A stretch of 64,000 bases of DNA from Candidatus Magasanikiibacteriota bacterium (GCA_041666745.1 JBAYGI010000006.1:3474-67473), one strand, 5' to 3'. Positions 3,831 to 51,509 are shown, counted from the first letter of the stretch. The notes: generated by a model not told the origin, from the sequence alone. Made by a program: numbers and translations.

Positions 3831-4412
3831 TTACTCGAACAGGTCGAGGTCTGCCAGCTCGCGCACCTTGACCTGCGCGGGCTTCTCAGAGACCAGATAC
3901 GCGTCATAGTTGCGGACGCGATTCTTGTCCTTCGAGAACAGCGTGACGAGCCACCACGCCTCGTCGCCGACCTGGATCGAACCGTTTGGGTTTATGGCGA
4001 TCACCACGCCCTGCTTCTTGGCGTTGGTGAGCGAGAGCCTGGGGCCATCCTTGCAGATGATCCCAGAGATCTTCTCGGTTGGCACGACCGTCTCACCCTT
4101 CACGTTGGTGTAGGTGAGGTTGGTGGGCGGATCGAACGCCAGATCCGGTTCCGGCGTGAGAATCGGTTCTCCGTACTTCCCCGGAGAGGCCATGTAGTAC
4201 TGGCGCTCCCCGTTCGGTCCGAGATTCATGATCATATACTGGCCGGGTTTCTTTCCGACCTCGACCGTCCACTGACATGTAGGGTTGGTGGAGCAAAGAT
4301 CCCGCAAAAACTTCTTCAGCGCCGGCCGATTGTCTGAATCGACCAACGCGAATTGCTCATCAGGGCTAAGCTCGCGCCACGCCGCGATCATCGCGTCGAA
4401 TGTTGGCTTCAT
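3831..4412 (-). CDS. hypothetical protein on GC-rich island A
   Basis: GC about 58% against a ~35% background. Probable start at MKPTFDAM, preceded by an AAAGGA RBS. TTGACT-17-TATTTT promoter near 4550-4583 (minus orientation). GC hairpin ccggcctcggccgg after the stop. No recognisable family. Confidence 0.55.
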   Translation of the reverse strand: MKPTFDAMIAAWRELSPDEQFALVDSDNRPALKKFLRDLCSTNPTCQWTVEVGKKPGQYMIMNLGPNGERQYYMASPGKYGEPILTPEPDLAFDPPTNLTYTNVKGETVVPTEKISGIICKDGPRLSLTNAKKQGVVIAINPNGSIQVGDEAWWLVTLFSKDKNRVRNYDAYLVSEKPAQVKVRELADLDLFE

Positions 4413-4615
4413 GTACTTTTCCTTTTTCCACCCTTTTACGGGCAGTACTTCCAACCACATGGCCAGAAGGAAGAACGCGGGTACCCCGGTCTTCTTTTGA
4501 GCCTGCCAAACAGGACCAAAAGAAAACCGCGAGTATCACAAAAACAATAATATAAAATAACACAAATTAGACAATTAGTCAATATTTGGGGGGGGTGCCG
4601 CCTATTTAAAAGATT

Positions 4616-15678: not shown

Positions 15679-15803
15679 AGCGGGGATATTGTAATACTTT
15701 TCTGGATGATTGACAAATATAGAAAAATATGATACAAAGCAGTGTCATGCTGAGAAGTTTTCTACAGCCTCTGACACCGTTCGTTGACTCAAAGGAGACT
15801 ATT

Positions 15804-16391
15804 TTGAAGAGGTTCATTGTCGCAACACTGGCGATGATTGTGGGGTTCTCCACCACAACAGCCGGTGCAGACACATTTTCCGCCAGTCGAGTCAGGATGC
15901 TCATCCATGGCTCCAACCAGTTCAGCGAGCAGTTGGGCGCGTCTGTTCACTTCATTCCGGCTGGAAATCTGCTGGGAGAGGTAGCACCGTTGATCTACGG
16001 CTCGTTCGACTGGACACCGATTCCGGAACTGACAATCAGCCCTACCGTGGGCTGGACGTTCAAGCCGGATGAGATGGTTGTGTCGCTCCGCCTCGCCCCG
16101 AAAATCGGCAAGTTCTGGGGGTGGGTGGATCTTGAAGAACGACCGACGTCCCGTGCATTCTACTGGTTCGTGCAGGCTCAATACCAGGTAACGAGCTTCC
16201 TGCACATCGGTGCCGAGCAAGAGTCATGGGGCGATTTCCACGACTTCAGCACGGCTTCGCACGGTGGCGGCCCGAACGTCCTCCTCCGCTTCGGAAGAAA
16301 CTTCGGCACAGACCTTGCACTACACGCCCGTTCCCTCGGCGGCAGTGCGGTCAATCTGGAGTTCTTTTCCCGGATCCATTTGTTCCTCTAA
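15804..16391 (+). CDS. GC-rich secreted protein, paralog 1 (island C)
   Basis: TTG start after an AAGGAG RBS. Signal peptide MKRFIVATLAMIVGFSTTTAGA. Beta-rich alternating pattern ending NLEFFSRIHLFL. TTGACA promoter at 15709. The ORF-track ATG at 15729 is probably too far upstream. Confidence 0.5.
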   Translation: MKRFIVATLAMIVGFSTTTAGADTFSASRVRMLIHGSNQFSEQLGASVHFIPAGNLLGEVAPLIYGSFDWTPIPELTISPTVGWTFKPDEMVVSLRLAPKIGKFWGWVDLEERPTSRAFYWFVQAQYQVTSFLHIGAEQESWGDFHDFSTASHGGGPNVLLRFGRNFGTDLALHARSLGGSAVNLEFFSRIHLFL

Positions 16392-16470
16392 CCGGTTGCG
16401 CGCTACCGTCCAACAAAGCGCGCAAAATCTTTTTCAACTTAATATATTTAGGTTTAAGAAGATAATAAAA
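16392..16470 (+). repeat. conserved 3' element copy 1 (hairpin ttgcgcgc...gcgcgcaa)
   Basis: About 90% identical over ~80 bp to 19343-19425. Followed by a terminator at 16471-16506. Confidence 0.7.
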
Positions 16471-16511
16471 AAAACCGACTGCCATCTGCGATCGGTTTTT
16501 TTATAAAAATC

Positions 16512-16709: not shown

Positions 16710-16779
16710 TTTTCTGATACAGTATATTCAGGTAACAAGAAACTCGGGACAAATCCGCCGAAAGGGGAAAGCCGTAAGG

Positions 16780-17349
16780 CTACCGAGTCATCTGACCGTC
16801 CACAAGCTGGACGGTTATTTTTTTCTCAAATAATTTAGTTAATTTAATAGTTTGCTCTGTGGAATTATCTGCGTGAGAACGAAATAATCCTGCGATTGCG
16901 TCCGCTAATCTCAAGCCCGCCGACGCTTCGTCCCTTAACAATCTAATTTTCTTTACAGAAATATTTTTATCACGCAAAACCTTTTTTAGTTTTTGTTCAT
17001 ATCGTTTTGACTTTTTACCATCTATAATTATTTTTTTAATATTGTGTTCTATTATTAAATGCTGAAAAATATTTTCAAAAGCAATATTATAATTTATTGG
17101 ATTATTTACAATGGCTAGTTTAAAAGAAAAATCCAAATTACTCACTACAGTAAGAAAACTTGCTCGTTTTTTCCATCCATTTGTTGAACCATAATCCGAC
17201 CAATGAAACGGTTTTATGCATAATAATTTTTCTACTTCAACAACCGCTTCTTCCATTTCTTTGATACTTTTTGCTTGTAAATAAACAAAAGAAATAGTTG
17301 AATGCCCTACTTTTTTATGAATACCTGATTCGTCTATAAAAATTATCAT
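16780..17349 (-). CDS. DUF3800 family protein
   Basis: N-terminal MIIFIDESG signature. Confidence 0.55.
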   Translation of the reverse strand: MIIFIDESGIHKKVGHSTISFVYLQAKSIKEMEEAVVEVEKLLCIKPFHWSDYGSTNGWKKRASFLTVVSNLDFSFKLAIVNNPINYNIAFENIFQHLIIEHNIKKIIIDGKKSKRYEQKLKKVLRDKNISVKKIRLLRDEASAGLRLADAIAGLFRSHADNSTEQTIKLTKLFEKKITVQLVDGQMTR

Positions 17350-18661: not shown

Positions 18662-18690
18662 TGACAAGATTATGAATATGTGATATACTT
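18662..18690 (+). promoter_or_regulatory. consensus promoter TTGACA-17-TATACT for paralog 2
   Basis: Perfect hexamers seen directly. Preceded by ttagccaaaat direct repeats at 18580-18655. Confidence 0.55.
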
Positions 18691-18856
18691 TGCTGTTACG
18701 ATGAATAACCGTAATGAAGTTCTTTACAACTGCCAGACGGAGTAGTGAACGGCAAAACTGCTTTTTACTACCTCGTCTGGCACAAGCAATATGGGTTCAC
18801 AAATGTGACTCGATTGACCAGTGCAGGTGGGCGGACTTATGTCCGGGGAGAATACC

Positions 18857-19342
18857 ATGAAGTCGACCCTCATCGTTCTCGTGCTCGCGTTCGTCTCTCT
18901 CACGGCCGCCACGGCCATCGGGCTCACCCCCGGCCTCAGTTTCCGGGAGGGATACGTCGTCCTGCTCAAGGACGGAGGTACCCCCGGACCGGTGGGTACC
19001 CGGATCGACTTCACTGTTTCTGAGAAGATCTCAGAGACGGTGTCCCTCATCGGAGGGGTAGGGGTGGGTACCCCGAACGATGTCTTCAAACCATCCCTGC
19101 GGATAGCCGTGGGTGGTGCGATGGCATTGGTGGGCAGGTGGTCTGTCCACGCCAGCGGACTGTTCCAGCGCAACATTGGTTACGGCGGGAAACCGTCGAC
19201 AACAGCGCTGGCTGTCGGAGGAGGTCCGACTTACAAAGTTGCAGATGGCGTTGCCTTGTCCTTGTCTTTCGGACCAGGCAAAATGCTTGACGGTGACTGG
19301 TCGTTTCTCATCCAGCCGTCGATTAGCATCTCCTTTCTGTAA
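18857..19342 (+). CDS. GC-rich secreted protein, paralog 2 (island D)
   Basis: GGGGAGAA RBS then ATG. Signal peptide MKSTLIVLVLAFVSLTAATA. Beta-rich. Ends ISISFL. About 62% GC. Confidence 0.5.
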   Translation: MKSTLIVLVLAFVSLTAATAIGLTPGLSFREGYVVLLKDGGTPGPVGTRIDFTVSEKISETVSLIGGVGVGTPNDVFKPSLRIAVGGAMALVGRWSVHASGLFQRNIGYGGKPSTTALAVGGGPTYKVADGVALSLSFGPGKMLDGDWSFLIQPSISISFL

Positions 19343-19425
19343 CCCATAACCGGTCGCGCGCTACCATCCAACAAAGCGCGCAAAATCTTTTTCAACTTAA
19401 TACCTTTAGGTTTAAGAAGACAACA
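19343..19425 (+). repeat. conserved 3' element copy 2
   Basis: Aligns with 16392-16470. Terminator at 19424-19457. Confidence 0.7.
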
Positions 19426-19466
19426 AAAAACCACCCGAGAGAAGGGTGGTTTTTTGTTTATAAATT

Positions 19467-22142
19467 TTATTTCATTTCCCCCCAGCTATGCCCAATATTC
19501 ACCTCCACCTTCACCGGCACTCTCAGTTTCACTACATTTTCCATGGTTTCTTTTACCATTTGACTCACTTTTTCCTCTTGTCCTTTTTTTATTTCAAATA
19601 CCAACTCGTCGTGCACTTGAAGAATCATTTTTATTTCTTCGTTGCCGGCAATCGCATCTTGCACGTCGATCATCGCCAGCTTGATCAAATCCGCCGCCGT
19701 ACCCTGAATCGGATGATTGATCGCCATACGCTCGGCCGCGCTTCGCAACTGAAAATTCTGCGACTTTAATTCTGGAATATATCGTCGGCGCCCAAACAGA
19801 GTCTCACAATATCCTTCTTTTTTGGTGAACTCCAAAGTCTGATCGATGTATTTTTTCACTCCACTAAATTGTTCAAAATATTTTTTAATAAAATCTTTCG
19901 CCTGTTCATGTGAAATTTCCGCGCGCCAACTCAGACCATAGGTACCCATACCATACAGCACGCCAAAATTTATCTCTTTGGCGCTACGACGCATTTCTTT
20001 GGTTACCTGTTCCAAGGGCACATTATTTATCGCCGCCGCTGTAGCTTTGTGAATATCCAAATCTTTTTCAAAAATTTCCATCATTTTTTTATCTTGTGCC
20101 AATGATGCTACAATACGCAATTCGATTTGACTATAATCCGCACTCACCAATATGTTTCCTTTTTCCGCCACAAATGTTTTGCGCACCTCACGCCCAATCT
20201 CGGTCCGAATCGGAATATTTTGTAAATTTGGATCAGAGCTGGACAGTCTGCCGGTGGCTGTGACCGCCTGATTAAAAGTCGTATGAATGCGTCCGGTTTT
20301 TTTGTTGATTAGGGTCGGCAAAACATCTACATAAGTATTTTGCAATTTGGACAACTCGCGATAAATTTCAATCTCATCAATAATCGGATGCAACCCCCGC
20401 ATTTTTTCAAGCTGTTCCGCCGAAGTGGACAGGCCGGTCTTGCCTTTTTTAATTCCCTCTACCGATATTCCCAATTTGTCGAATAGCACTTCACGCAATT
20501 GCAGTGGCGAAGAAATATTAAATTCCATGCCCGCTAAATCAAAAATCTTTTTAGAAACTTTTTTAATATTTTCATTTACTTCCAAAGATAATTTTTTCAA
20601 CATTTCCAAATCCACCGACACGCCATTTAATTCCATTTGCGACAGGGCAAAAATCAGAGGCATTTCTATTTTTTGCATCAAACCTAGGTTGTCTGTTTTT
20701 TCCAATTCGTTTTTTAATTTATCGACAGTTTGATTTAACAAAAATAATTCTTGAGCGATAGCTTTGGCATCCACTCCAAACAAACTTTCTTGACCACTCC
20801 CTACTTTCAATTCTTTTCCCAAAACTTTCAATACCACGCTGGCGCTATCATGAGCGCGACTGCCCGGATTAAGCAAATATGATCCCACCATTACATCAAA
20901 CAAAGAATTGTTTATCTCTTGTTTTTGTAACAATAAAACCTTGATCAGTTGTTTCAAATCATGACCAACCAATTCGATTTTTTCATCCGCGAAAATCGGC
21001 AAAAATTCCTCTACCAAATTATTTTTTATATAGCAACCTTCATTTTCTACTATCACCACCAGGCCCAACAGACTGCTGGTCAAAACATCCTTTCCATTCA
21101 ACACCGCTTTGCAGGCAAACTGTTTTTGTTTTTTAATTTTTTCAACCAACTCTTTTATCTCATTTTTATTTTCTACTTCTTTAAATTTTAAATCCGCTAT
21201 TTTTTTACTTTTGGTTGTTTTGTTTTTTTCCGGTTCACCTTCTATTATATGTTCGAATCCGGGGATGCGTTTAAGCAGAGAAACAAATTCAAATTTTTGA
21301 AATAGTTTGATTATTTTTTCACGATCAAATTCACTGATCGCGCAATCGTCTAGTGTAAAACGCAAGTCCGGTACCGCACAATCTATGGCTGCCAATTCAT
21401 AACTCATCTGGGCGCTTTTTTCTCCATCAACTAATTTTTGCAAAACCGAAGCGCTAAACAATTCGCTTTTCTTTTTTTCTTTTTCCTTATACACCACTTT
21501 ATATATTTCTTTTAAATCACCAAATTTCAAAATTAGTTCCGTAGCGGTTTTTTCACCAATCCCCGGTACACCGGGGATATTGTCCGAGGCATCACCACGC
21601 AATGCTTTGTAATCTATTACCAACTCCGGCCCAAAACCAAAACGTTTTTTTACTTCGTCCGGATTATACACCACCACATCGTTCATGCCTTTGCGCAAAG
21701 TAAATACTTTTATTTTTTCATCTACCAACTGCAAGGTGTCCATATCCCCCGTCACTATAAACACTTCGTCGACTTCAGATTTTACTTTTTTTACCACCGT
21801 ACCGATAACATCGTCCGCCTCAAAACCCCTTTTTTCATAAATCGGAATACTAAAGGCCTCCACCACTTCATGAACCATCGGCATTTGATCATATAGTTCT
21901 TGGTCGGCTTTTACTCTCGTGCCTTTATATTTTTCATATTTTTCATGACGAAAAGTCCCGCCAGCGACATCAAAACTCACACACAAATGAGTGGGTTTTA
22001 AATCTTTCCAAACCTTGAGTAACATGGAAGTAAATCCATACACCGCATTGACCATCACTCCGTCTTTGGTGTGCATTGGAGGAATAGCATGATAGGCGCG
22101 ATGCACAATAGCATTGCCGTCTATTATTACAAATTTTTTCAT
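19467..22142 (-). CDS. polA: DNA polymerase I
   Basis: 891 aa with a 5'-3' exonuclease N-terminus and a PolA family polymerase domain. Confidence 0.9.
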   Translation of the reverse strand: MKKFVIIDGNAIVHRAYHAIPPMHTKDGVMVNAVYGFTSMLLKVWKDLKPTHLCVSFDVAGGTFRHEKYEKYKGTRVKADQELYDQMPMVHEVVEAFSIPIYEKRGFEADDVIGTVVKKVKSEVDEVFIVTGDMDTLQLVDEKIKVFTLRKGMNDVVVYNPDEVKKRFGFGPELVIDYKALRGDASDNIPGVPGIGEKTATELILKFGDLKEIYKVVYKEKEKKKSELFSASVLQKLVDGEKSAQMSYELAAIDCAVPDLRFTLDDCAISEFDREKIIKLFQKFEFVSLLKRIPGFEHIIEGEPEKNKTTKSKKIADLKFKEVENKNEIKELVEKIKKQKQFACKAVLNGKDVLTSSLLGLVVIVENEGCYIKNNLVEEFLPIFADEKIELVGHDLKQLIKVLLLQKQEINNSLFDVMVGSYLLNPGSRAHDSASVVLKVLGKELKVGSGQESLFGVDAKAIAQELFLLNQTVDKLKNELEKTDNLGLMQKIEMPLIFALSQMELNGVSVDLEMLKKLSLEVNENIKKVSKKIFDLAGMEFNISSPLQLREVLFDKLGISVEGIKKGKTGLSTSAEQLEKMRGLHPIIDEIEIYRELSKLQNTYVDVLPTLINKKTGRIHTTFNQAVTATGRLSSSDPNLQNIPIRTEIGREVRKTFVAEKGNILVSADYSQIELRIVASLAQDKKMMEIFEKDLDIHKATAAAINNVPLEQVTKEMRRSAKEINFGVLYGMGTYGLSWRAEISHEQAKDFIKKYFEQFSGVKKYIDQTLEFTKKEGYCETLFGRRRYIPELKSQNFQLRSAAERMAINHPIQGTAADLIKLAMIDVQDAIAGNEEIKMILQVHDELVFEIKKGQEEKVSQMVKETMENVVKLRVPVKVEVNIGHSWGEMK

Positions 22143-22148
22143 AAAAAA

Positions 22149-22176
22149 TTGTCATTCCCGCAAAAGCGGGAATCTA
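22149..22176 (+). repeat. hairpin repeat family 1, copy b (left terminal inverted repeat of the mini-cassette)
   Basis: ttgtcattcccgcaaaagcgggaatc. Confidence 0.6.
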
Positions 22177-22340
22177 ACCAATATTTTACTATTCTTTCCC
22201 TTTTTTAGCAAACCCGCCTTCGCTAAAGCTACGGCGGGTAAAACAAAAAAATCACCTGGCGGTGAAATAGTAGGGCGTCGGGCAGGGGTGTCATGTCCCC
22301 CTGCCCGACGGAAGTCCCGACAGCTCGCTCGATCACGGAG

Positions 22341-22478
22341 CTACGGGAAACGGTTGCGGTTTCGGGCCTCGGCGTTCATCTCGTACTCATCGTAGCTGCT
22401 GCGGGCGTGGCTGCAGTTGTTGACGAGCTTCTCGCACTGCGCGTCGGTCATGATGTACTCGGTCTCGTTGCGAAACAT
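22341..22478 (-). CDS. 45-aa Cys-containing peptide inside the GC-rich mini-cassette
   Basis: AAGGAG RBS 8 nt before the ATG. Translation MFRNETEYIMTDAQCEKLVNNCSHARSSYDEYEMNAEARNRNRFP. GC about 60%. Confidence 0.35.
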   Translation of the reverse strand: MFRNETEYIMTDAQCEKLVNNCSHARSSYDEYEMNAEARNRNRFP

Positions 22479-22587
22479 GAGAATGCTCCTTGCTCGGGTT
22501 GCTTCCTCCGACCTGCTTCCGCCCCAACGAGCGAATATGACAGGTACAGATAAGAATCATTTTATATGAGAGAGAGATAATAGTCAA

Positions 22588-22612
22588 GATTCCCGTTTCC
22601 ACGGGAATGACA
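22588..22612 (-). repeat. hairpin repeat family 1, copy c (right terminal inverted repeat, inverted orientation)
   Basis: Reverse complement is tgtcattcccgtggaaacgggaatc. Confidence 0.6.
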
Positions 22613-22630
22613 ATAAACAACAAAAAAACA

Positions 22631-26409: not shown

Positions 26410-26472
26410 GTCATTCCCGCGAAGGCGGGAATCCAGTCGCTCGTTACTGTCATCCTGAGTATAGCGAAGGAT
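26410..26472 (+). repeat. hairpin repeat family 1, tandem copies d1 and d2
   Basis: tgtcattcccgcgaaggcgggaatcc plus the diverged tgtcatcctgagtatagcgaaggatcc. Terminator at 26487-26534. Confidence 0.55.
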
Positions 26473-26641
26473 CCCTTAAATCCATTTTCACAACAGAACA
26501 AAAACCACCGACCAATCACCGGTGGTTTTTTATTTGAAAAGGCACTATCCCCATTGACTTCTTTCTTTTTTTTAATTAGTATGAAACCTAATGTTCGTGG
26601 CTAAACTCTAACCACGAAACCCAACCACCAGGAGAACTGAC

Positions 26642-27013
26642 ATGACCCTGAAATCCGAGCTCGTGGCAATACGCCAAGACAAGCAGGAAAGTCGCGACAG
26701 AGAGGACCAGAGGATAGTTCAGGAGAGTCACGACCACATGACTGCTCTGATCGACAACCTCCCTGACATGCTGAGGGCACAAGCCCGACTCAACGGCGGT
26801 ACGTTGTGGGTCAGCACATGCTACACCACCCATGTGAAGTGCGTGGTTCGTGACGAGGAAGGGGAAGACACTGTGTGGCACAGTGAGAAGACTTATTTCA
26901 CAGGGGCAGACTGGAGACGACTGGAAGTGTGGGTCCGGGAAAACGGCCTCCAGATGAATCGTCATCCAGATCAGGCCGCTGGGGGTGCGCCCTTGTACGG
27001 GATTGAGCCCTAA
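26642..27013 (+). CDS. hypothetical protein on GC-rich island E
   Basis: AGGAGA RBS. TTGACT-17-TAGTAT promoter at 26544. 123 aa with no recognised family. 11-bp-stem hairpin at 27027-27056. Confidence 0.5.
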   Translation: MTLKSELVAIRQDKQESRDREDQRIVQESHDHMTALIDNLPDMLRAQARLNGGTLWVSTCYTTHVKCVVRDEEGEDTVWHSEKTYFTGADWRRLEVWVRENGLQMNRHPDQAAGGAPLYGIEP

Positions 27014-27127
27014 CTCCAACCAACATGTCCCACTCGCACAGGCGAGCGAGTGGGACAGAGGCAATAGTATCTACATTGATCACTCGCCACGTAATTTGAA
27101 AATATTTTAAAATATGTTTTCAGATTA

Positions 27128-27192
27128 CGCGAGTGATCTAAACGCTTTAAATTAAAAAACATCGAAATTAAATTCGGTGTTTTTTTATTCCC
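27128..27192 (+). repeat. R4 direct repeat copy 1 (includes a terminator hairpin)
   Basis: gagtgatctaaacgctttaaattaaaaaacatcgaaattaaattcggtgttttttt. Near-identical to 28951-29010. Confidence 0.7.
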
Positions 27193-27245
27193 TAAATAAA
27201 TTCGTCAAAAAACAAATTTTGTGGTATCATATATAAAATTTCAAT

Positions 27246-28094
27246 ATGCATACTGTTAAAATTCTACAACCTACAAGCACGACACTGGTGGCTCAACTCT
27301 CTTCACTTTATCAAACATTTAAAGGTGTAAAACAAAAAGACGCTATTGAATTTGATTTTTCCAATCTTAATTTTATCTCTCCTCTGTTAATCTTGCCGTT
27401 ATGCGCGTATCTCAACGAAAGCAAAAGCTCCATAATAGGGACAACTCAGCACACCTCATACTTATCAGCGATTAAATTTCCAAAAGGAATAGACACCATA
27501 AATTCATTTCAGCAACAATTACAGTTTGCTAAAAATTTTGTGCCAATAAGTGTTTTAAAGAAAGATTATGGCGCTGACCGAGAACGACTGGAAACTCAAT
27601 TTGCCACTATGGTAAATAAAATTATCGGCTCAATCAAAGGATCCCAAAGCGCTATTTATCACCCTATTACCGAATTAGTCACCAATATTTTTGATCATAG
27701 TAAAAAAGACAGGGGTTACATATTTGGACAATATTATCCAAATAAAAAATTTCTTGACATTTGTATAGTTGATTGTGGCCGTGGTTTAAGTTGTGTGTAC
27801 AAAGAAGAAGAAGGACTGGAACTAAACGACGAAGAAGCAATAATTGAAGTAATGAAAGGTAATTCCACCAAACCGGGAAAAGAAAGAGGTTTTGGTGTAA
27901 GAACCTCAAAAAAAGTGATTTGCGAAGCTTTGGGAGGAGAATTTATTTTAATTTCCGGCAATACCGCATTAATTTCGGATAAAGGCAGAGAAAGAATAGT
28001 GTCATTGCCCGAGTTTTATTGGCAAGGAGTAATAATTTCATACCGCATACCTCAGCCCCATGGTGTTATTGACATTTACCCATATTTGGAATAG
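27246..28094 (+). CDS. STAS-like (DUF4325-like) N-terminus fused to a GHKL/HATPase_c serine-kinase-like domain
   Basis: N-box ITELVTNIFDHS, G1 IVDCGRGL and G2 GFGV. N-terminal EFDFSNLNFISPL resembles STAS/DUF4325. Confidence 0.5.
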   Translation: MHTVKILQPTSTTLVAQLSSLYQTFKGVKQKDAIEFDFSNLNFISPLLILPLCAYLNESKSSIIGTTQHTSYLSAIKFPKGIDTINSFQQQLQFAKNFVPISVLKKDYGADRERLETQFATMVNKIIGSIKGSQSAIYHPITELVTNIFDHSKKDRGYIFGQYYPNKKFLDICIVDCGRGLSCVYKEEEGLELNDEEAIIEVMKGNSTKPGKERGFGVRTSKKVICEALGGEFILISGNTALISDKGRERIVSLPEFYWQGVIISYRIPQPHGVIDIYPYLE

Positions 28095-28122
28095 TTTAAA
28101 GTGTAGGGTATAATATAGTTGT

Positions 28123-28494
28123 ATGGTAAAAGAAACTAAATCCACAATTAATGTATCAGAAATTTTAGCGAAAATCGTTGGCTCCAGGGATCTGTCCGAC
28201 ACGCTAAAAGACGCTATTTTAAAAACCAACACCAATGTGGTTGATTTGGATTTTTCTGAAGTTGAATTTATTTCTCGCTCGGCAGCGCACGAACTTTTGT
28301 CAATGAAGGAAGATCTTAAAAGGAAATTATTGAATAAGAAAGAAATCAATTTTGTTAATACTAATGAAGATGCCACAAAAATGTTTAGGGTGGTAGCTGC
28401 TAATAAAGCCATACCTGATCTTAAACCGACTTTTACCGCTGAACGGGTGGATATAGAATCACTGACGAAAAAAACGCATACTTGCGCTTGCTAA
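28123..28494 (+). CDS. standalone STAS-like (DUF4325-like) protein
   Basis: VVDLDFSEVEFISRSAAHELL motif. Sits 28 bp after the GHKL gene. Confidence 0.4.
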   Translation: MVKETKSTINVSEILAKIVGSRDLSDTLKDAILKTNTNVVDLDFSEVEFISRSAAHELLSMKEDLKRKLLNKKEINFVNTNEDATKMFRVVAANKAIPDLKPTFTAERVDIESLTKKTHTCAC

Positions 28495-28598
28495 AATAGC
28501 GAATAGGATGATGGTGCTTGTGAGGGTTTTGGCCCTCTCGCGGTCAACAAATGTTAAACCGCAGACGGGCAACATCATTTTGTTCGCTATTGTTTTTC
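28495..28598 (+). terminator. complex multi-stem terminator
   Basis: Outer stem aatagcgaa/ttcgctatt encloses two inner hairpins and is followed by gttttt. Confidence 0.4.
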
Positions 28599-28950
28599 CA
28601 AATCACCCTCGCACAGCACTCTTTCGATTTGATTGCTGATGGGGTGATTTTTGTTTAAATTGATTAACATAATAGTAACAAAAATACCCCGACAAAAGTT
28701 GAGGTATTTTTTCATGCTTGCCTTCGGCTTTACATTTAGCCGAATAGGGCTGACGCCCCACAAGCACGGTGTTATGATAGCACGAGAATTAGTAAAAGTC
28801 AATTAGTTATACACAAGATGCAGGTAATATGGACGTTTTTGACACGTTTTATCCATACTTAAAACTTATAATGATTTAGTAATACATTTTAAGTATACTT
28901 AAAATTGGTTTTGATTAATGCATCAAGTCCTCCTGCAAATGTTTAAATTT

Positions 28951-29010
28951 TGTGAGTGATCTAAACGCTTAAATTAAAAAACATCGAAATTAAATTCGGT
29001 GTTTTTTTGT
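28951..29010 (+). repeat. R4 direct repeat copy 2
   Basis: See copy 1. Confidence 0.7.
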
Positions 29011-29175
29011 TTCCAATTCACCTTTACACAAAACTCGGGCGGTTTTTTCTGCCTCTAGGCAGAAAGAGGCGCATGTACAGTATGTTGCCATAAAACTAGC
29101 AACATGATATATTATGTTTAGCTACAAAAATTAAATTTTTGAGCACAAATGTGCTATATTAACTAAAATTAAAAT

Positions 29176-30078
29176 ATGACGGAAAAACCCTTTCCCCAAA
29201 CTATGGCGAAACCAACACAAGAAACGGAGCCACAACCAGCCGATGTGGACAGACGAGAAGCCGAGATGACCACACTAAGAGAAGCAGTGACCACACTAAG
29301 AGAAGCAGTGGCCACACTACAAGCCAAGATGGCCGCACAACAAGCCAAGATGGCCGCACTAAAAGAAGCAATGGCCACACTGCAAGCCACTGTGGCATCT
29401 TATAGCGAGACCAGGCGCACATCAGAAGTTGTTTCCAAAGCCGAGTTTAACGAGGCAGCCAGAACAATAGAAAAAACATTACTAAAAATAAAAGAAATAA
29501 CCGAGGCATTCAGTACTTGGGCCGACGAATGTGCCGAAATTGCCAAAGAGATATCACATACTACTAACGATGGCTATCTGAAGCTGGTCGATGCATCTGA
29601 TGTGCCCAATGTGGCAAGAGATATTATTACCTGTGCAGAAGAACATTTAAAACGCCTGCATGCAACAATACAAGATGTCTTACAAGACCCGGGCACACCT
29701 TTGAGTTTGGGGTTAATAAACAAATTTCACCCGGATAATTGGTCACCAGAATTATGGCAAAACTTACAGAGTTCTCTTATTCGTTTATTCCTTCACAAAG
29801 TAATGACCGTTAAAAAAGAGGTGTTGATGGCACAAGCTAACAAACTTGGCCTTATTCAAAAAAGCGTACACTTGAACGGTTTAGAAAAGTGGTTTGGATG
29901 CCTAGACAAGTTGAGAGCTAGTGAAGTAAACAAAAAAGACTTTATACCTATATGGCGAGAACGTTTTGCTGGAATGGGAGTGTCGGACGGCCTATATGCC
30001 ACCGGCTTTGACGTTGAAATAGCAACTGGAGACACAGTTGCTTACCGATCACCTCCAACGATAAAAATCAGTGGATAG
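29176..30078 (+). CDS. hypothetical protein with a GC-rich tandem-repeat coiled-coil N-terminus (island F)
   Basis: 21-nt and 18-nt DNA tandem repeats encode TTLREAV x2 and AKMAA x2. GC falls from about 57% to about 40% along the gene. Confidence 0.45.
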   Translation: MTEKPFPQTMAKPTQETEPQPADVDRREAEMTTLREAVTTLREAVATLQAKMAAQQAKMAALKEAMATLQATVASYSETRRTSEVVSKAEFNEAARTIEKTLLKIKEITEAFSTWADECAEIAKEISHTTNDGYLKLVDASDVPNVARDIITCAEEHLKRLHATIQDVLQDPGTPLSLGLINKFHPDNWSPELWQNLQSSLIRLFLHKVMTVKKEVLMAQANKLGLIQKSVHLNGLEKWFGCLDKLRASEVNKKDFIPIWRERFAGMGVSDGLYATGFDVEIATGDTVAYRSPPTIKISG

Positions 30079-30107
30079 TAAATCAAAATTTACTTCCTGC
30101 CAATTCA

Positions 30108-30183
30108 ACGCCCGTTTTTTTGCCACATCACGCAATCACGGGCGTTTTTTATTGACATTTTTTCTTATTTACGCTACACTTTA
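30108..30183 (+). promoter_or_regulatory. terminator hairpin then TTGACA-17-TACACT promoter for tig
   Basis: aacgcccgt...acgggcgtttttt followed by a consensus -35. Confidence 0.45.
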
Positions 30184-30207
30184 CCCATTATTTACTATAT
30201 TTCATCT

Positions 30208-31488
30208 ATGCAACACACCCTCAAACAACTCCCGAAATCCCAAGTGGAGTTGATCATCACCGTAACTTTGGAGGACTACAAAAAGGATATGGAAACCGCC
30301 GCCCTGCGCATTTCCCAGCGCGCCGCTATCCATGGTTTTCGTCCAGGCAAAGCTCCGTATGATATTGTCAAACAAAATGTTGGTGAAATAAAAATTTTGG
30401 AAGAAGCGATGCAGACCATTGTTGAAAAAAATTATCACTCTGCTGTGGTAGCGGAAAAATTGGAAACCATCGGCATGCCGGAAATTACCATTGAAAAAAT
30501 GGCTCCGGGAAATGATTTTGTTTTCAAGGCCGTGGCTGCGCTTTTGCCAACTGTAAAACTCGGCGACACAGAAAAAATTAAAGTAGAAAAAAAAGAAATC
30601 AAAGTGGAAGATAAACAAATTGATGAAGTAATAGAAAATTTAAAAAAGATGCAAGGCAAAGAGGTGGTAAAAGAAGGCGTCGCCACCAAAGAAGATAAAG
30701 TAGAAGTGGCGATGAATATGTCTATCAACAAAGTTCCGGTGGAAGGCGGACAAGCTCCAAAACACCAGGTGTATTTAAGCGAGCCACATTACATTCCGGG
30801 CTTTGCCGAACAATTGGTCGGCTTGAAAAAAGACGACACCAAAGAATTTTCTTTACGTTTTCCTGACGAACATTACCAAAAACATTTGGCCGGTAAAGAT
30901 GTAGATATTTCCATCAAAGTGAATGATGTATATTCCATTGAGTATCCGGAAATAAGCGACGAGCTCGCTCAAAAACTTGGTCAAAAAAGCGTAGAGGGTT
31001 TGAAAGAAATTTTGATGACCAATTTAAAACAAGAAGCACAAAACAAAGAGGACCAGCGTATTGAGGCTGAATTGTTAGAAAAAGTGATTTTGGCTAGTGA
31101 GTTTAGTGAGGTGCCTGATGTTTTGATCAAATCAGAAAAACAAAAAATGTTTTATGAATTAAAAAACAGTTTACAGGATCAAGGTATTGAGTTTGAGAAA
31201 TATCTAAAGGATCTCAAAAAAACCGAGGAGGAAATTGCCGAAGATTTTGCGGAGCGTGCGCTCACTCGAGTTAAAGCCGCCTTAATATCTAGACAAATCG
31301 CCAAAGAAAATGATATTAAAGTGGAAAAGGAAGAATTGGACAAAGAAATTGAGGTAATAAAAATTACCTACAAAAATGATCCAAAGGTGGATGAAGCACT
31401 AAAGCGCCAAGAGGTGCTGGACACCTTGGCCGCCACTATTCAAAACAAAAAAGTGGTGCAGTGGTTGAAAGAAAAGATTTTGAAATAA
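30208..31488 (+). CDS. tig: trigger factor
   Basis: MQHTLKQLPKSQVELIITV... with a PPIase domain GFRPGKAP. Confidence 0.9.
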   Translation: MQHTLKQLPKSQVELIITVTLEDYKKDMETAALRISQRAAIHGFRPGKAPYDIVKQNVGEIKILEEAMQTIVEKNYHSAVVAEKLETIGMPEITIEKMAPGNDFVFKAVAALLPTVKLGDTEKIKVEKKEIKVEDKQIDEVIENLKKMQGKEVVKEGVATKEDKVEVAMNMSINKVPVEGGQAPKHQVYLSEPHYIPGFAEQLVGLKKDDTKEFSLRFPDEHYQKHLAGKDVDISIKVNDVYSIEYPEISDELAQKLGQKSVEGLKEILMTNLKQEAQNKEDQRIEAELLEKVILASEFSEVPDVLIKSEKQKMFYELKNSLQDQGIEFEKYLKDLKKTEEEIAEDFAERALTRVKAALISRQIAKENDIKVEKEELDKEIEVIKITYKNDPKVDEALKRQEVLDTLAATIQNKKVVQWLKEKILK

Positions 31489-34549: not shown

Positions 34550-35392
34550 TTATCCTATTATTTTCTTCTTTTTATCTTTCCCCGCCAACAAAAAATTTTG
34601 CCCCGTCACCACGCTTTTTCCTGTTTTTTGTTCCAGCGCAACTCTGGCGTCTTTTGCAATTTTCCCGCCTTTCTTCGCCGGAATTTTATTTTCCTCCAGC
34701 CCTTTTGTTTCCATCGTCTCGGCGATTTGCCGAGTAGAAAGTTCGGCCAAAGCCGTAAAAACCAATTCCGCGTCTGTCATGTGGTCGCGCAAATTCTGCG
34801 TTTTGAGATTTTTCAAACTTTTATGTTCCTTGACCGACAAGTCGCTCCATTCCGCGTGAATAATATTTGTCAAAATCGCAAATTCATCCTGCTCTTTTAC
34901 CTCATTATTTTTCCAATAATCCGTCAATTTATTCCGAATTTCCTGCCCCATCATTCTTTGCTGAATCCACTTATCGCTTCTGCCCATCTTCTGCCAATAC
35001 TCTCTGGAACGATTCAACGCCTTTTCCGGGTCAGTCATTTCTTGCATTCTTTCATAGCCAACTTTCGCGAGCCAGAGTTTGATTGGTTCGGCTTTTTTGG
35101 ATGGAACGGATTGAATAATTCTTAATAAGTGTTCTGGTGTGCCGGCTAAAATTTTCCTATTTTTGCCGGTTTCAGTAGGCATTTCTACCTGGGGACAATT
35201 TGTCCCTATGTAGATAGCAAGACCAGCATCTCTTTTTCTTAATTTTTTCAAATAATCAGTTGGACTAATACTTTCAGTAAGTGCAAAAATAATATCCACC
35301 ACTGAAAAATACCACACCTCTTTATCTTCATCATAAACCCGACGAATTTTAAACCCCTCAAAAATTGCTAACGCCCCCCGTTTGTTTTGCAT
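34550..35392 (-). CDS. Bro-N domain protein (phage antirepressor/DinD-like)
   Basis: FEGFKIRRVYDEDKEVWYFSVVDIIFAL matches the Bro-N pattern. Confidence 0.5.
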   Translation of the reverse strand: MQNKRGALAIFEGFKIRRVYDEDKEVWYFSVVDIIFALTESISPTDYLKKLRKRDAGLAIYIGTNCPQVEMPTETGKNRKILAGTPEHLLRIIQSVPSKKAEPIKLWLAKVGYERMQEMTDPEKALNRSREYWQKMGRSDKWIQQRMMGQEIRNKLTDYWKNNEVKEQDEFAILTNIIHAEWSDLSVKEHKSLKNLKTQNLRDHMTDAELVFTALAELSTRQIAETMETKGLEENKIPAKKGGKIAKDARVALEQKTGKSVVTGQNFLLAGKDKKKKIIG

Positions 35393-48433: not shown

Positions 48434-49095
48434 ATGGGTTAGTTATTTTCTATGGAAGTAATTATAGCAGATTATTAAACATAGTCAAGCAAAATTTTTT
48501 GAAAAAAAATAAGGGCGTAGTATCCCGATAAACATTGTTTTAAGGATCTCGCCCTTAAGGCGCTGTACATGGTGAGATAAGTCGTCGTATAGACGAAGCT
48601 ATCATCAGCCAAGACAGTAATACCTTCCGACCGCTTGATGGTATTACCTCAGGCATGAGTCTGACACAAAAGGTCAAACAAATGCAGAAAATTTGAGGTT
48701 ACCGGACAAGAAGTACAGATTCGCCACTACTACTTCAATGTATTTGTATAGCAGTTGTAAATCCACTTCTTTGAACTAAGCAGTTCGTAGGGTTATGTCC
48801 ACTGATAAGTGGACGTTTGAGTTGTAGTAAAGAACTACATAATTAGTATAACACGAGAAATGGGTTTTGTCAATAGGTTTGTATAGACTAGTGTATACAA
48901 ACAAGGTTTGTTTTGTAGTTAGCCAAAAAAATAGAGAGGGTGGCGGTATAAAAAAATTGTTATCCACATCTGGGTGTGGATATACACATAGTTATCCACA
49001 GTTTGTATAGAGTAGTGTATACAAAAACAAGATTGAAAGGTGTGGACAAGGGCGGTAAGGTTGACTTTTTGGGTGAAATATGGTAGTGTGCAGGC

Positions 49096-49278
49096 ATGCC
49101 TCTGCTATTACACGCGACAATCGCGTCTTCGGGCGGGGCGAAAGGCAGTATGTCGGTGTCATTGATCATTTTGATCACAGTTGCGCTCGGTTTCGGCTTT
49201 GGCGTGCTCATTTTTGGAGTGGTAAGGGCAGTACACGCCCAAGCGGTGAAAAACACCAAAGGAAGTGAGAGGGAATGA
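49096..49278 (+). CDS. 60-aa single-TM peptide on GC-rich island G
   Basis: TTGACT-17-TAGTGT promoter ends about 6 nt before the ATG (leaderless-like). Overlaps by ATGA a second 30-codon ORF at 49275-49367 that has a GAGAGGG RBS. Large hairpin terminator at 49337-49395. Confidence 0.3.
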   Translation: MPLLLHATIASSGGAKGSMSVSLIILITVALGFGFGVLIFGVVRAVHAQAVKNTKGSERE

Positions 49279-49433
49279 GTTGTCCTGCACACCCCCGTCG
49301 AGCGACTGCTCACGGGGTACACCTACGGCGAGGTAACAAAAAACCACCCGCACTACGCGAGTAGAAAAAGTATTTTCTATTCACGCGACGGGTGGTTTTT
49401 GTTTTGCCCGCCAAAGCCTTGGCGGAGGCGGGT

Positions 49434-51509
49434 TTATTTCTGTTTTCCAGTAATTATATTCTGGGCCACATTGTTTGGCACATCAGCGTAATGGCCGAAT
49501 TCCATTGAAGAACTGGCACGACCTTGACTCATAGAGCGCAAGGAAGTGACATATCCAAACATACTGGCGAGAGGCACGATTGCTTTTACTACCTTCATTT
49601 GACCACGGTCAAACATTTCTTGAATTTGTCCACGTTTTGAATTCAAATCTCCGATACAATCACCCATAAATGGTTCCGGGGTTACCACTTCTATTTTCAT
49701 TATTGGTTCCATGATTACTGGGTTGGCTTTTTTGCAAGCGGCTTGAAAGGCCATAGATCCCGCCATCTTGAAAGCCATTTCGGAAGAGTCGACTTCGTGG
49801 TATGAGCCATCAAAGACAGTTACTTTGATATCCACTACCGGATAACCGGCTTGAATACCGCGGGTCAAAGATTCTTTGACACCTTTTTCAATAGCTGGGA
49901 TAAATTCACGAGGAATCACACCGCCCTTAACATCGTCCACAAATTCAAAGCCTTTGCCAGCTTCTTGAGGCTCAACTTTGAGATAACAATGACCATATTG
50001 ACCACGGCCACCGGATTGTTTGATATACTTACCTTCAGCCTCAGCAGAAGTGCGAATAGTTTCCTTATAGGCAACTTGTGGAGCACCCACATTGGCTTCC
50101 ACTTTGAATTCGCGACGCATACGATCCACGATGATATCCAGATGTAGCTCTCCCATACCTTCGATGATGGTCTGTAAAGTTTCTTCATCAGTATGTACAC
50201 GGAAAGTAGGATCTTCTTCAGTGAGTTTTTGTAGAGCCATGCCGATTCTTTCTTGGTCAGCCTTAGTTTTTGGTTCAATGGCCACGGAAATAACCGGTTC
50301 CGGGAAGATGATTTTTTCTAAAACGATTGGTTTTTTTTCATCACAAAGAGTGTCTCCGGTAGTAATATCTTTTAAGCCAATTGCCGCGGCGATTTCACCT
50401 GAAAATACTTCAGTTAAATCTTCGCGATGGTTTGCATGCATACGAACGATACGTCCAAGACGGCTACGTTCACCACTGGTAGAGTTAAACAAATAACTGC
50501 CAGCAGAAACTTTACCGGAATATACACGGAAGAAAACCAATTTTCCGACGAATGGGTCGGTGGCAATTTTAAAAGCTAGCGCAGAAAAAGGTTCATCATC
50601 GGAAGGGTTGCGAATTTCTTCAGCTTCAGTTTCCGGATTAATTCCTTTGACTGGAGGTAAATCGGTTGGAGCCGGTAAATAACGGATTACCGCATCAAGC
50701 ATCATTTGTACGCCGATATTGGCTAGAGCTGAGCCACAAATTACCGGATACATTTCATTTTTTAAAGTGAGAATGCGAATGCCGGTGTGAATTTCATCAA
50801 TAGTAAGTGCTTCAGCGTTCAAAAACTTTCCCATTAGTTCATCGTTGGCTTCAGCGGCCTTTTCTACCATTTTGGCCCGGTATTCTTTTACTTTTTCTAC
50901 CATATCGGCTGGAATTGGAATTTCCACGATGTTTTCACCGTGTGCGCCTTCAAAATGATAGGCTTTTTCTTCTATCAAATCAATCAGCCCCTCAAAAGTA
51001 CTATCTGCACCGATTGGAAGTTGGATAGCAGTCGCTTTTCTAGACAAACGTTCTTGGATAGAGTCTAAACTCATGTAGAAATCTGCGCCAAGTTTGTCCA
51101 TTTTGTTTATAAATGGTACGCGTGGCACATTGTATTTGTCGGCTTGGTGCCAAACAGTTTCGGACTGTGGTTCTACACCCTGAGAGCCATCGAACACAGC
51201 TACAGCGCCATCAAGCACACGCAAAGAACGCTCTACTTCTACAGTAAAGTCCACGTGTCCAGGAGTATCAATAATATTGATGCGGTGGTCTTTCCAAAAA
51301 CAGGTAGTCGCGGCAGAAGTAATAGTGATACCGCGTTCTTTTTCCTGTTCCATCCAATCCATTTCGGCAGCACCTTCGTGCACCTCGCCGATTTTGTGTT
51401 TTTTACCGGTATAAAAAAGCACACGTTCTGTTGTTGTGGTTTTGCCGGCATCAATATGAGCGGCAATACCGATATTACGTGTTTTGTCTAGTGAATATTC
51501 ACGAGGCAT
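49434..51509 (-). CDS. fusA: elongation factor G
   Basis: GTPase G1-G5 motifs ([17 protein letters not shown]). Confidence 0.95.

Follow-up and report, generated by a model that had tools for sequence, protein, structure and literature searches.

We describe a gene at positions 29176..30078 (+ strand) of a 64,000-nt stretch of DNA, referred to as a whole as the window, from a MAG of Candidatus Magasanikbacteria (Patescibacteria/CPR; NCBI record of WCT11_03485). It is probably a genuine, monocistronic and lineage-restricted gene that codes for a soluble, all-helical coiled-coil protein and has gained heptads by slippage. The part of this reading that concerns the gene, the coiled coil and the slippage is likely to hold; any role in conflict is doubtful. 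The protein is an orphan, and no family, structure or neighbour indicates its function. Its sole relative is P0002, a 282-residue protein encoded on the Logan contig L001 from SRR22388067, with an identity of 62% by BLASTP or 68% over the aligned residues, the two proteins being collinear end to end. The L001 locus is orthologous, with both flanks conserved and the trigger-factor promoter at the 3' end of the contig. The product is a new orphan protein of a familiar coiled-coil kind with ordinary heptad duplications as its repeats, and it adds a clear case of 21-nt slippage lengthening a coiled coil by whole heptads with the register kept, here in a Patescibacteria lineage that has not been cultivated.

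A word-indexed search of 5.8 billion protein clusters returned two proteins, and a full HMMER scan of 1.84 billion representative proteins gave a full-length match to P0002 only. Matches to the N-terminal head in that scan were proteins with 7-residue repeats (NVTTLQG, LKEDVGT and KVGTLDG repeats) aligned to positions 29-79, and a closely related head was found on no other protein among the 1.84 billion representatives. No further relatives emerged when GTDB genomes, JGI metagenomes and IMG/VR were scanned with protein patterns, or when metagenomes and genomes were scanned with a degenerate DNA pattern for GLEKWFGCLDK, and tblastn found nothing in phages and only matches at E=0.3 in plasmids. 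In Pfam, NCBIfam, PHROGs and PADLOC, all matches were coiled-coil noise within residues 10-170 and the C-terminal 215 aa matched nothing, and phmmer with the C-terminus against the PDB gave no match at E<=10. Weak matches to SMC, JetC, LmuB, tape-measure proteins and P22 gp26 all fall within residues 10-170 and are coiled-coil noise.

Gene boundaries and protein architecture

The gene encodes 300 residues and is annotated at NCBI as hypothetical protein WCT11_03485. The NCBI annotation starts the protein at M10 and other pipelines start it at M1; a cluster look-up for alternative alleles returned this gene alone, in its M1 and its M10 versions. We consider M1 the better start, because the residues MTEKPF and their codons are kept in P0002, the M10 codon is removed there by a 21-nt deletion, and an in-frame stop lies only 6 nt 5' of M1. 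The same stop excludes a longer N-terminus. The preliminary description had placed the start at 29100, which picks out the right gene but includes 76 nt of 5' leader.

Upstream of the gene lies a sigma-70-like promoter (29085..29113, + strand), TTGCCA-17-TATATT with a TG extension, matching the consensus at 10/12 positions. The promoter region is 90% identical to L001, compared with 83% for the coding sequence. Its -35 box is overlapped by a 7-bp inverted repeat, ATGTTGC-N10-GCAACAT (29082-29105), which is conserved in the relative and could be an operator. A second small palindrome at 29043-29066, TTTTTTCTGCCTCTAGGCAGAAAGA, forms a hairpin that is kept in the relative with a compensating change in L001. 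The ATG of the gene has no Shine-Dalgarno motif before it, which is also the case for the trigger-factor gene and the HATPase-like gene described below. Rfam gave no match of note in or around the gene, and a hairpin in the 5' leader is neither conserved in the relative nor significant. The gene is followed by an intrinsic-terminator-like hairpin (30107..30150, + strand), AACGCCCGU...ACGGGCGUU and a U-run, with a folding energy of -19.7 kcal/mol (z=-4.7); the hairpin is conserved in L001 at -17.9, with 94% identity. A promoter scan places the trigger-factor promoter (30152-30180) 3' of this terminator. Housekeeping genes for DNA polymerase I, an M23/LysM peptidase and an H+-pyrophosphatase lie upstream, and the trigger-factor gene (tig) directly 3' of the gene is followed by genes for an asparaginase, TspO and a GNAT acetyltransferase.

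The protein would consist of four parts: a short acidic disordered tail, a 56-residue heptad coiled coil, a second heptad helix that is amphipathic, and a C-terminal region of orphan sequence. The tail, residues 1-23 (29176..29244, + strand), is rich in Pro, Thr, Glu and Gln and is probably disordered, as the AF2 model gives residues 1-20 no secondary structure at a pLDDT of 33-37. It is followed by the coiled-coil head, residues 24-79 (29245..29412, + strand), delimited by heptad analysis, TRF and AF2, which is made up of the eight heptads VDRREAE, MTTLREA, VTTLREA, VATLQAK, MAAQQAK, MAALKEA, MATLQAT and VASYSET. Position a is Val or Met and position d is Leu, except for one Gln, one Tyr and, in the first heptad, one Arg. 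Core hydrophobic residues occupy 88% of the a and d positions and 0% of the others, a value as high as which was reached by none of 5000 shuffles, so that the coiled-coil prediction suggested in the preliminary description returns a canonical heptad pattern. The relative shows the heptad pattern as well. AF2 models a single helix over residues 21-82 (pLDDT 54-67). A second heptad-patterned helix (p=0.0016) spans residues 88-129 (29437..29562, + strand), an AF2 helix with the same limits, and carries F91, I98, I105, F112, C119 and I126 at a spacing of seven residues.

The C-terminal region, residues 130-300 (29563..30075, + strand), is predicted to be helical by low-confidence models and contains the conserved blocks DASDVPNV, LINKFHPDN, VHLNGLEKWFGCLDKLR and DGLYATGFDV. 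No heptad periodicity was detected over residues 140-300 (p=0.80). The pLDDT of the AF2 models is low, 49.5 for the full length and 42.4 for the C-terminal part, and a Foldseek search of the PDB returned nothing below E=0.06, the matches being generic helical bundles; neither the models nor these matches were of use. The maximum 19-residue hydropathy of the protein is 0.90, its N-terminus is acidic and Pro-rich, and no signal peptide, membrane segment or anchor was predicted from the sequence of the 300-aa protein. Therefore, given the lack of a hydrophobic segment and the character of the N-terminus, the protein is read as soluble and not Sec-exported.

The repeat array and the number of heptads

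TRF detected a single array with a period of 21 nt (29255..29389, scores 91-99), which is the top-scoring tandem repeat of the window. The longest exact run at a lag of 21 is 23 nt, compared with a maximum of 11 in 200 shuffles. This run starts at 29267 and corresponds to a perfect duplication of one 21-nt unit, encoding MTTLREA and VTTLREA (29267..29310, + strand): the units at 29267 and 29288 are identical at 21/21 positions, and the relative has one corresponding unit. The 21-nt repeat reported earlier, accacactaagagaagcagtg, is present here as two tandem copies at 29269-29289 and 29290-29310. A second, near-perfect duplication, encoding QAKMAA twice (29320..29358, + strand), is formed by the units at 29309 and 29330, which are identical at 19/21 positions and again have one counterpart in the relative. 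It contains two copies of caagccaagatggccgca, at 29320-29337 and 29341-29358, which had been described as 18-nt repeats; both copies exist, but they lie 21 nt apart and the period is not 18 nt. The translations given for the two repeats, TTLREAV twice and (Q)AKMAA twice, are correct and fall in the heptad register.

Variation in repeat number among related strains had been proposed as a check, and it was found in the one relative: the window allele has eight heptads and P0002 has six, with an exact 14-residue gap in the alignment. In addition, P0002 lacks seven residues of the disordered tail. The extra units of the window are identical at 21/21 and 19/21 positions, whereas the orthologues differ at approximately 17% of sites, which argues for a recent gain of two units in the window lineage. 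From these identities we infer two recent single-unit duplications there, by slippage or unequal recombination, a deletion of two units in the relative being less likely. Since a heptad is coded by one 21-nt unit, slippage or unequal recombination would add or remove whole heptads in register, and because the unit keeps the reading frame, the outcome is length variation rather than phase variation. An independent Logan assembly from the source population (L008, SRR6484324; 2183 nt) runs unbroken through the array and is 100% identical to the window at 28979-31161; no variation of the array within the population was seen in it. Thus, of the slippage-prone head proposed in the preliminary description, the coiled coil and a two-heptad difference between alleles stand, but only two units are perfect copies and the array is identical in the second assembly. 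A self-BLAST of 28981-30200 against the window found no second copy of the coding parts, and a diversity-generating retroelement target was rejected.

Base composition, evolutionary rate and alternative readings

The first 86 codons of the gene have a GC content of 51.6%, with 54.5% in the best 200-nt stretch, and the rest of the gene has 41.1%. The local peak of 52.8% is reached by 3.6% of 250-nt segments. The preliminary description gave a drop from about 57% to about 40%; the rise is real, but its size was overstated. Using a host codon table built from 27 long ORFs of the window (GC3 0.28-0.46), we calculated, for the amino acids encoded by these first 86 codons, an expected GC of 0.513 ± 0.018 and an expected GC3 of 0.431 ± 0.049, and the observed values are 0.516 (z=0.2) and 0.430 (z=0.0), respectively. 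Codon positions 1 and 2 (0.62 and 0.50) account for the excess, which reflects the codons of Ala, Thr, Pro, Glu, Gln and Arg. The GC richness of the head follows from the GCN, ACN, CAR and GAR codons of Ala, Thr, Gln and Glu, and is therefore an effect of amino acid composition and not of foreign origin. An Ala/Thr/Gln/Glu-rich coiled coil can fully produce a local GC rise in an AT-rich genome, so that such a rise should be compared with the codon-usage expectation before horizontal transfer is called.

A GC-rich coiled-coil module of foreign origin, joined near 29420 to a C-terminus of host composition, had been proposed from the drop in GC along the gene, and the gene also adjoins a variable segment of about 2.5 kb (26536-29045) for which the relative has no counterpart at its locus. 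We consider such a chimera very improbable. Besides the agreement of the head with the host expectation in both GC and GC3, the relative is collinear in both parts and has a matching GC gradient, and the suggested search for a recombination junction near 29420 showed a continuous alignment with no break: nucleotide identity to L001 is 80.5% before this position and 83.2% after it, and dS is 0.26 and 0.19, respectively. The variable segment stops 5' of the promoter of the gene, and no donor-like protein with a closely related head was seen among the 1.84 billion representatives. The preliminary description had counted a shared GC gradient together with a uniform repeat number as evidence against its own proposal; the gradient is indeed shared, but the repeat number is not uniform, being two heptads lower in the relative. 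A reading built on its second suggestion, a hypervariable or phase-variable surface protein whose array would be a contingency locus changing within populations, appears improbable. The heptad number does differ between the two known alleles, the protein evolves fast, and similar VxTLxxx heptads occur in the adhesin-like protein P0003. However, the 21-nt unit lies inside the coding sequence, so that neither frame nor promoter spacing is shifted and both alleles keep the frame; perfect copies are limited to two units; the L008 contig carries the identical array; and the protein has no signal peptide, TM segment or anchor, and no adhesin domain was found in it.

The rate of evolution raises another alternative. 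One pairwise estimate from two sequences, the gene and that of P0002, gave a dS of 0.21, a dN of 0.19 and a dN/dS of 0.92, with 1.0 over residues 86-300 and, as a figure that carries no significance test, 2.1 over residues 251-300 (5.3 synonymous and 31.7 nonsynonymous differences). The differences are spread evenly over the codon positions (55/44/44). By comparison, the neighbouring HATPase-like and STAS-like genes have dN/dS values of 0.07-0.13 against their closest relatives. These values, together with the orphan status of the protein and the lack of a Shine-Dalgarno motif, would also fit a decaying or non-functional ORF, or a young proto-gene drifting neutrally, in which the coiled-coil pattern is residual. 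We rate this as unlikely on several grounds. When 146 random substitutions were simulated, the frame stayed open in only 0.23% of runs. All indels relative to P0002, at least five of them outside the repeats, are multiples of 3, and both the promoter (90%) and the terminator (94%) exceed synonymous sites in conservation. The two alleles retain the heptad register, and identical blocks reach 17 residues, although replacements cluster with weak significance only (runs test, p=0.033). Such a near-neutral rate, with the frame preserved, fits an accessory protein under weak constraint or one taking part in an interaction that changes fast. With two sequences only, relaxed selection and a mixture of purifying and diversifying selection are inseparable. 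A further reading, a divergent J-domain-like co-chaperone of the adjacent trigger factor, arises from the LINKFHPDN block, as KFHPDN is present in both alleles, H185-P186-D187 lies between two predicted helices, and the gene adjoins tig. This is extremely unlikely: BLASTP with the J-domain of E. coli DnaJ aligns 9 residues only, neither allele matches Pfam DnaJ (PF00226) at E<=10, no PDB match was found at E<=10, the presumed helix II spans about 9 residues, follows Pro/Gly and lacks a basic face, and the rapid evolution is unlike that of a chaperone cofactor. A profile-level match to the J-fold (~65 residues) is absent and a J-domain protein was rejected.

Possible function and the surrounding DNA

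Val or Met at a combined with Leu at d is the pattern of parallel leucine-zipper dimers, and by this analogy the head, with beta-branched residues or Met at a and Leu at d, probably forms a parallel dimer. It shares this a/d pattern with GCN4-like coiled coils over its eight heptads, but the protein has no basic DNA-binding region, its b, c and g positions are Ala/Thr-rich, and one d position is Gln. Trimeric autotransporter adhesin stalks provide another comparison, as the NVTTLQG-type repeats of P0003 match the head with a VxTL periodicity; a similar periodicity is found in the phage P22 tail needle gp26 (4lin_A, E=0.0038). These matches reflect periodicity and composition and not homology; they are confined to residues 21-79, and the protein has no YadA, anchor or needle domain. 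Members of the DivIVA, FilP and Ccrp class are soluble, helical, heptad-rich and self-associating, and belong to conserved families that profiles detect. The present protein is likewise soluble, helical and heptad-rich by prediction, whereas it matches none of these families and evolves near-neutrally. Streptococcal M proteins are size-variable heptad-repeat proteins. In Plasmodium vivax MSP3, the heptad number varies among haplotypes and the variation of the nucleotide repeats was attributed to slipped-strand mispairing (PMC7335089). The protein described here has in common with M proteins and MSP3 an Ala-rich heptad coiled coil whose length changes between alleles through repeat indels. However, M proteins and MSP3 are antigens, secreted or exposed at the surface, on which immune selection acts and for which many alleles are documented, whereas here there is no export signal and two alleles are known.

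The analysis shows the gene, its repeats and their heptad register, the compositional origin of the GC rise, the difference in copy number and the evolutionary rate; we infer the oligomerisation, the stalk role, the direction of the copy-number change and the biological function proposed below. Most likely, the coiled coil would drive self-association and serve as a stalk for the C-terminal part. After the split from the relative, the window allele would have gained two units, or about 2 nm of stalk (14 residues at ~0.15 nm per residue, by textbook coiled-coil geometry). The stalk might then present the fast-changing C-terminal helical region to a variable partner. It is rather unlikely that the protein is a lineage-specific conflict or interaction factor of episymbiotic Patescibacteria, acting for example against phage or towards the host cell, with its C-terminus under diversifying selection. 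Such a factor could have its stalk length tuned in 1-nm steps by heptad slippage, and might be a cytoplasmic or unconventionally exported analogue of the size-variable coiled-coil antigens. What deserves following, given more alleles, is only the near-neutral rate in combination with the preserved frame; if these are recovered, the gene is a candidate for studies of orphan-gene turnover or arms races in CPR bacteria.

The 5' flank of L001 aligns with window positions 26446-26535, which hold a REP-like hairpin motif and a terminator, and then jumps to 29046, so that about 2.5 kb of the window (26536-29045), between the terminator of the H+-pyrophosphatase gene and the promoter of the coiled-coil gene, is missing in L001 (positions 1-95). 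The junction lies at a GGTTTTTT motif. This segment resembles a small hot-spot of indels flanked by housekeeping genes; the coiled-coil gene lies at its edge and does not belong to the inserted material. REP-like hairpin motifs follow the pyrophosphatase gene at 26411-26436 (GTCATTCCCGCGAAGGCGGGAATCC) and 26449-26473 (GTCATCCTGAG..CGAAGGATC). The second motif also forms both ends of the relative's contig (L001 3-32 and 1166-1197), which suggests that several copies of it exist in that genome and interrupt assembly there.

The variable segment contains a GC-rich singleton ORF of 123 aa (26642-27013) that has an AGGAG ribosome-binding site. With a GC3 of 0.667 it is truly atypical, and provides a contrast case about 2 kb upstream of the coiled-coil gene; no homologue of it was found among 5.8 billion protein clusters. 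The surrounding GC-rich island (26560-27142; 57%) has an equally long ORF opposite this one, RNA folding z-scores of about -5.5 on both strands, and perfect hairpins at ~27027-27056 and 27079-27140; it may be either coding or RNA. It is followed by the HATPase-like gene (27246-28094; phrog_3364, E=1e-37), for which more than 200 homologues were found, the named ones coming from Patescibacteria/CPR MAGs, and by the STAS-like gene (28123-28494). The two copies of a ~60-nt direct repeat (27131-27192 and 28954-29014), which differ by one 1-nt indel and contain a terminator-like hairpin and a T-run, bracket 1.82 kb with these two genes and 460 nt of non-coding DNA. Homologous two-gene HATPase/STAS cassettes (L002-L007) have unrelated flanks, and the pair thus behaves like a movable module. 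A functional link between the pair and the coiled-coil gene was rejected, as the pair is absent at the relative's locus and its homologues lie in other contexts. The ~460 nt at 28495-28953 hold no convincing ORF and carry a minus-strand promoter-like site (28802-28774; 10/12 matches, with TG); this part could be an sRNA or a gene remnant.

Other short GC-rich islands, with peak GC of 0.56-0.64 in a window of about 40% GC, are present at 3831-4460 (-), 15729-16391 (+), 18674-19433, 22128-22623 and 49022-49545. The first three contain ORFs with a GC3 of 0.68-0.79 and no Pfam match, and are atypical, unlike the coiled-coil gene. An Rfam DUF3800-II RNA motif (16732-16797, + strand; 57.6 bits against a gathering score of 43.2) lies just 3' of the GC-rich island at 15725-16504. 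About 4.5 kb downstream of the coiled-coil gene, a 280-aa ORF (34550-35392, - strand) has a weak Bro-N match (E=2.4e-4), which hints at phage-derived DNA.
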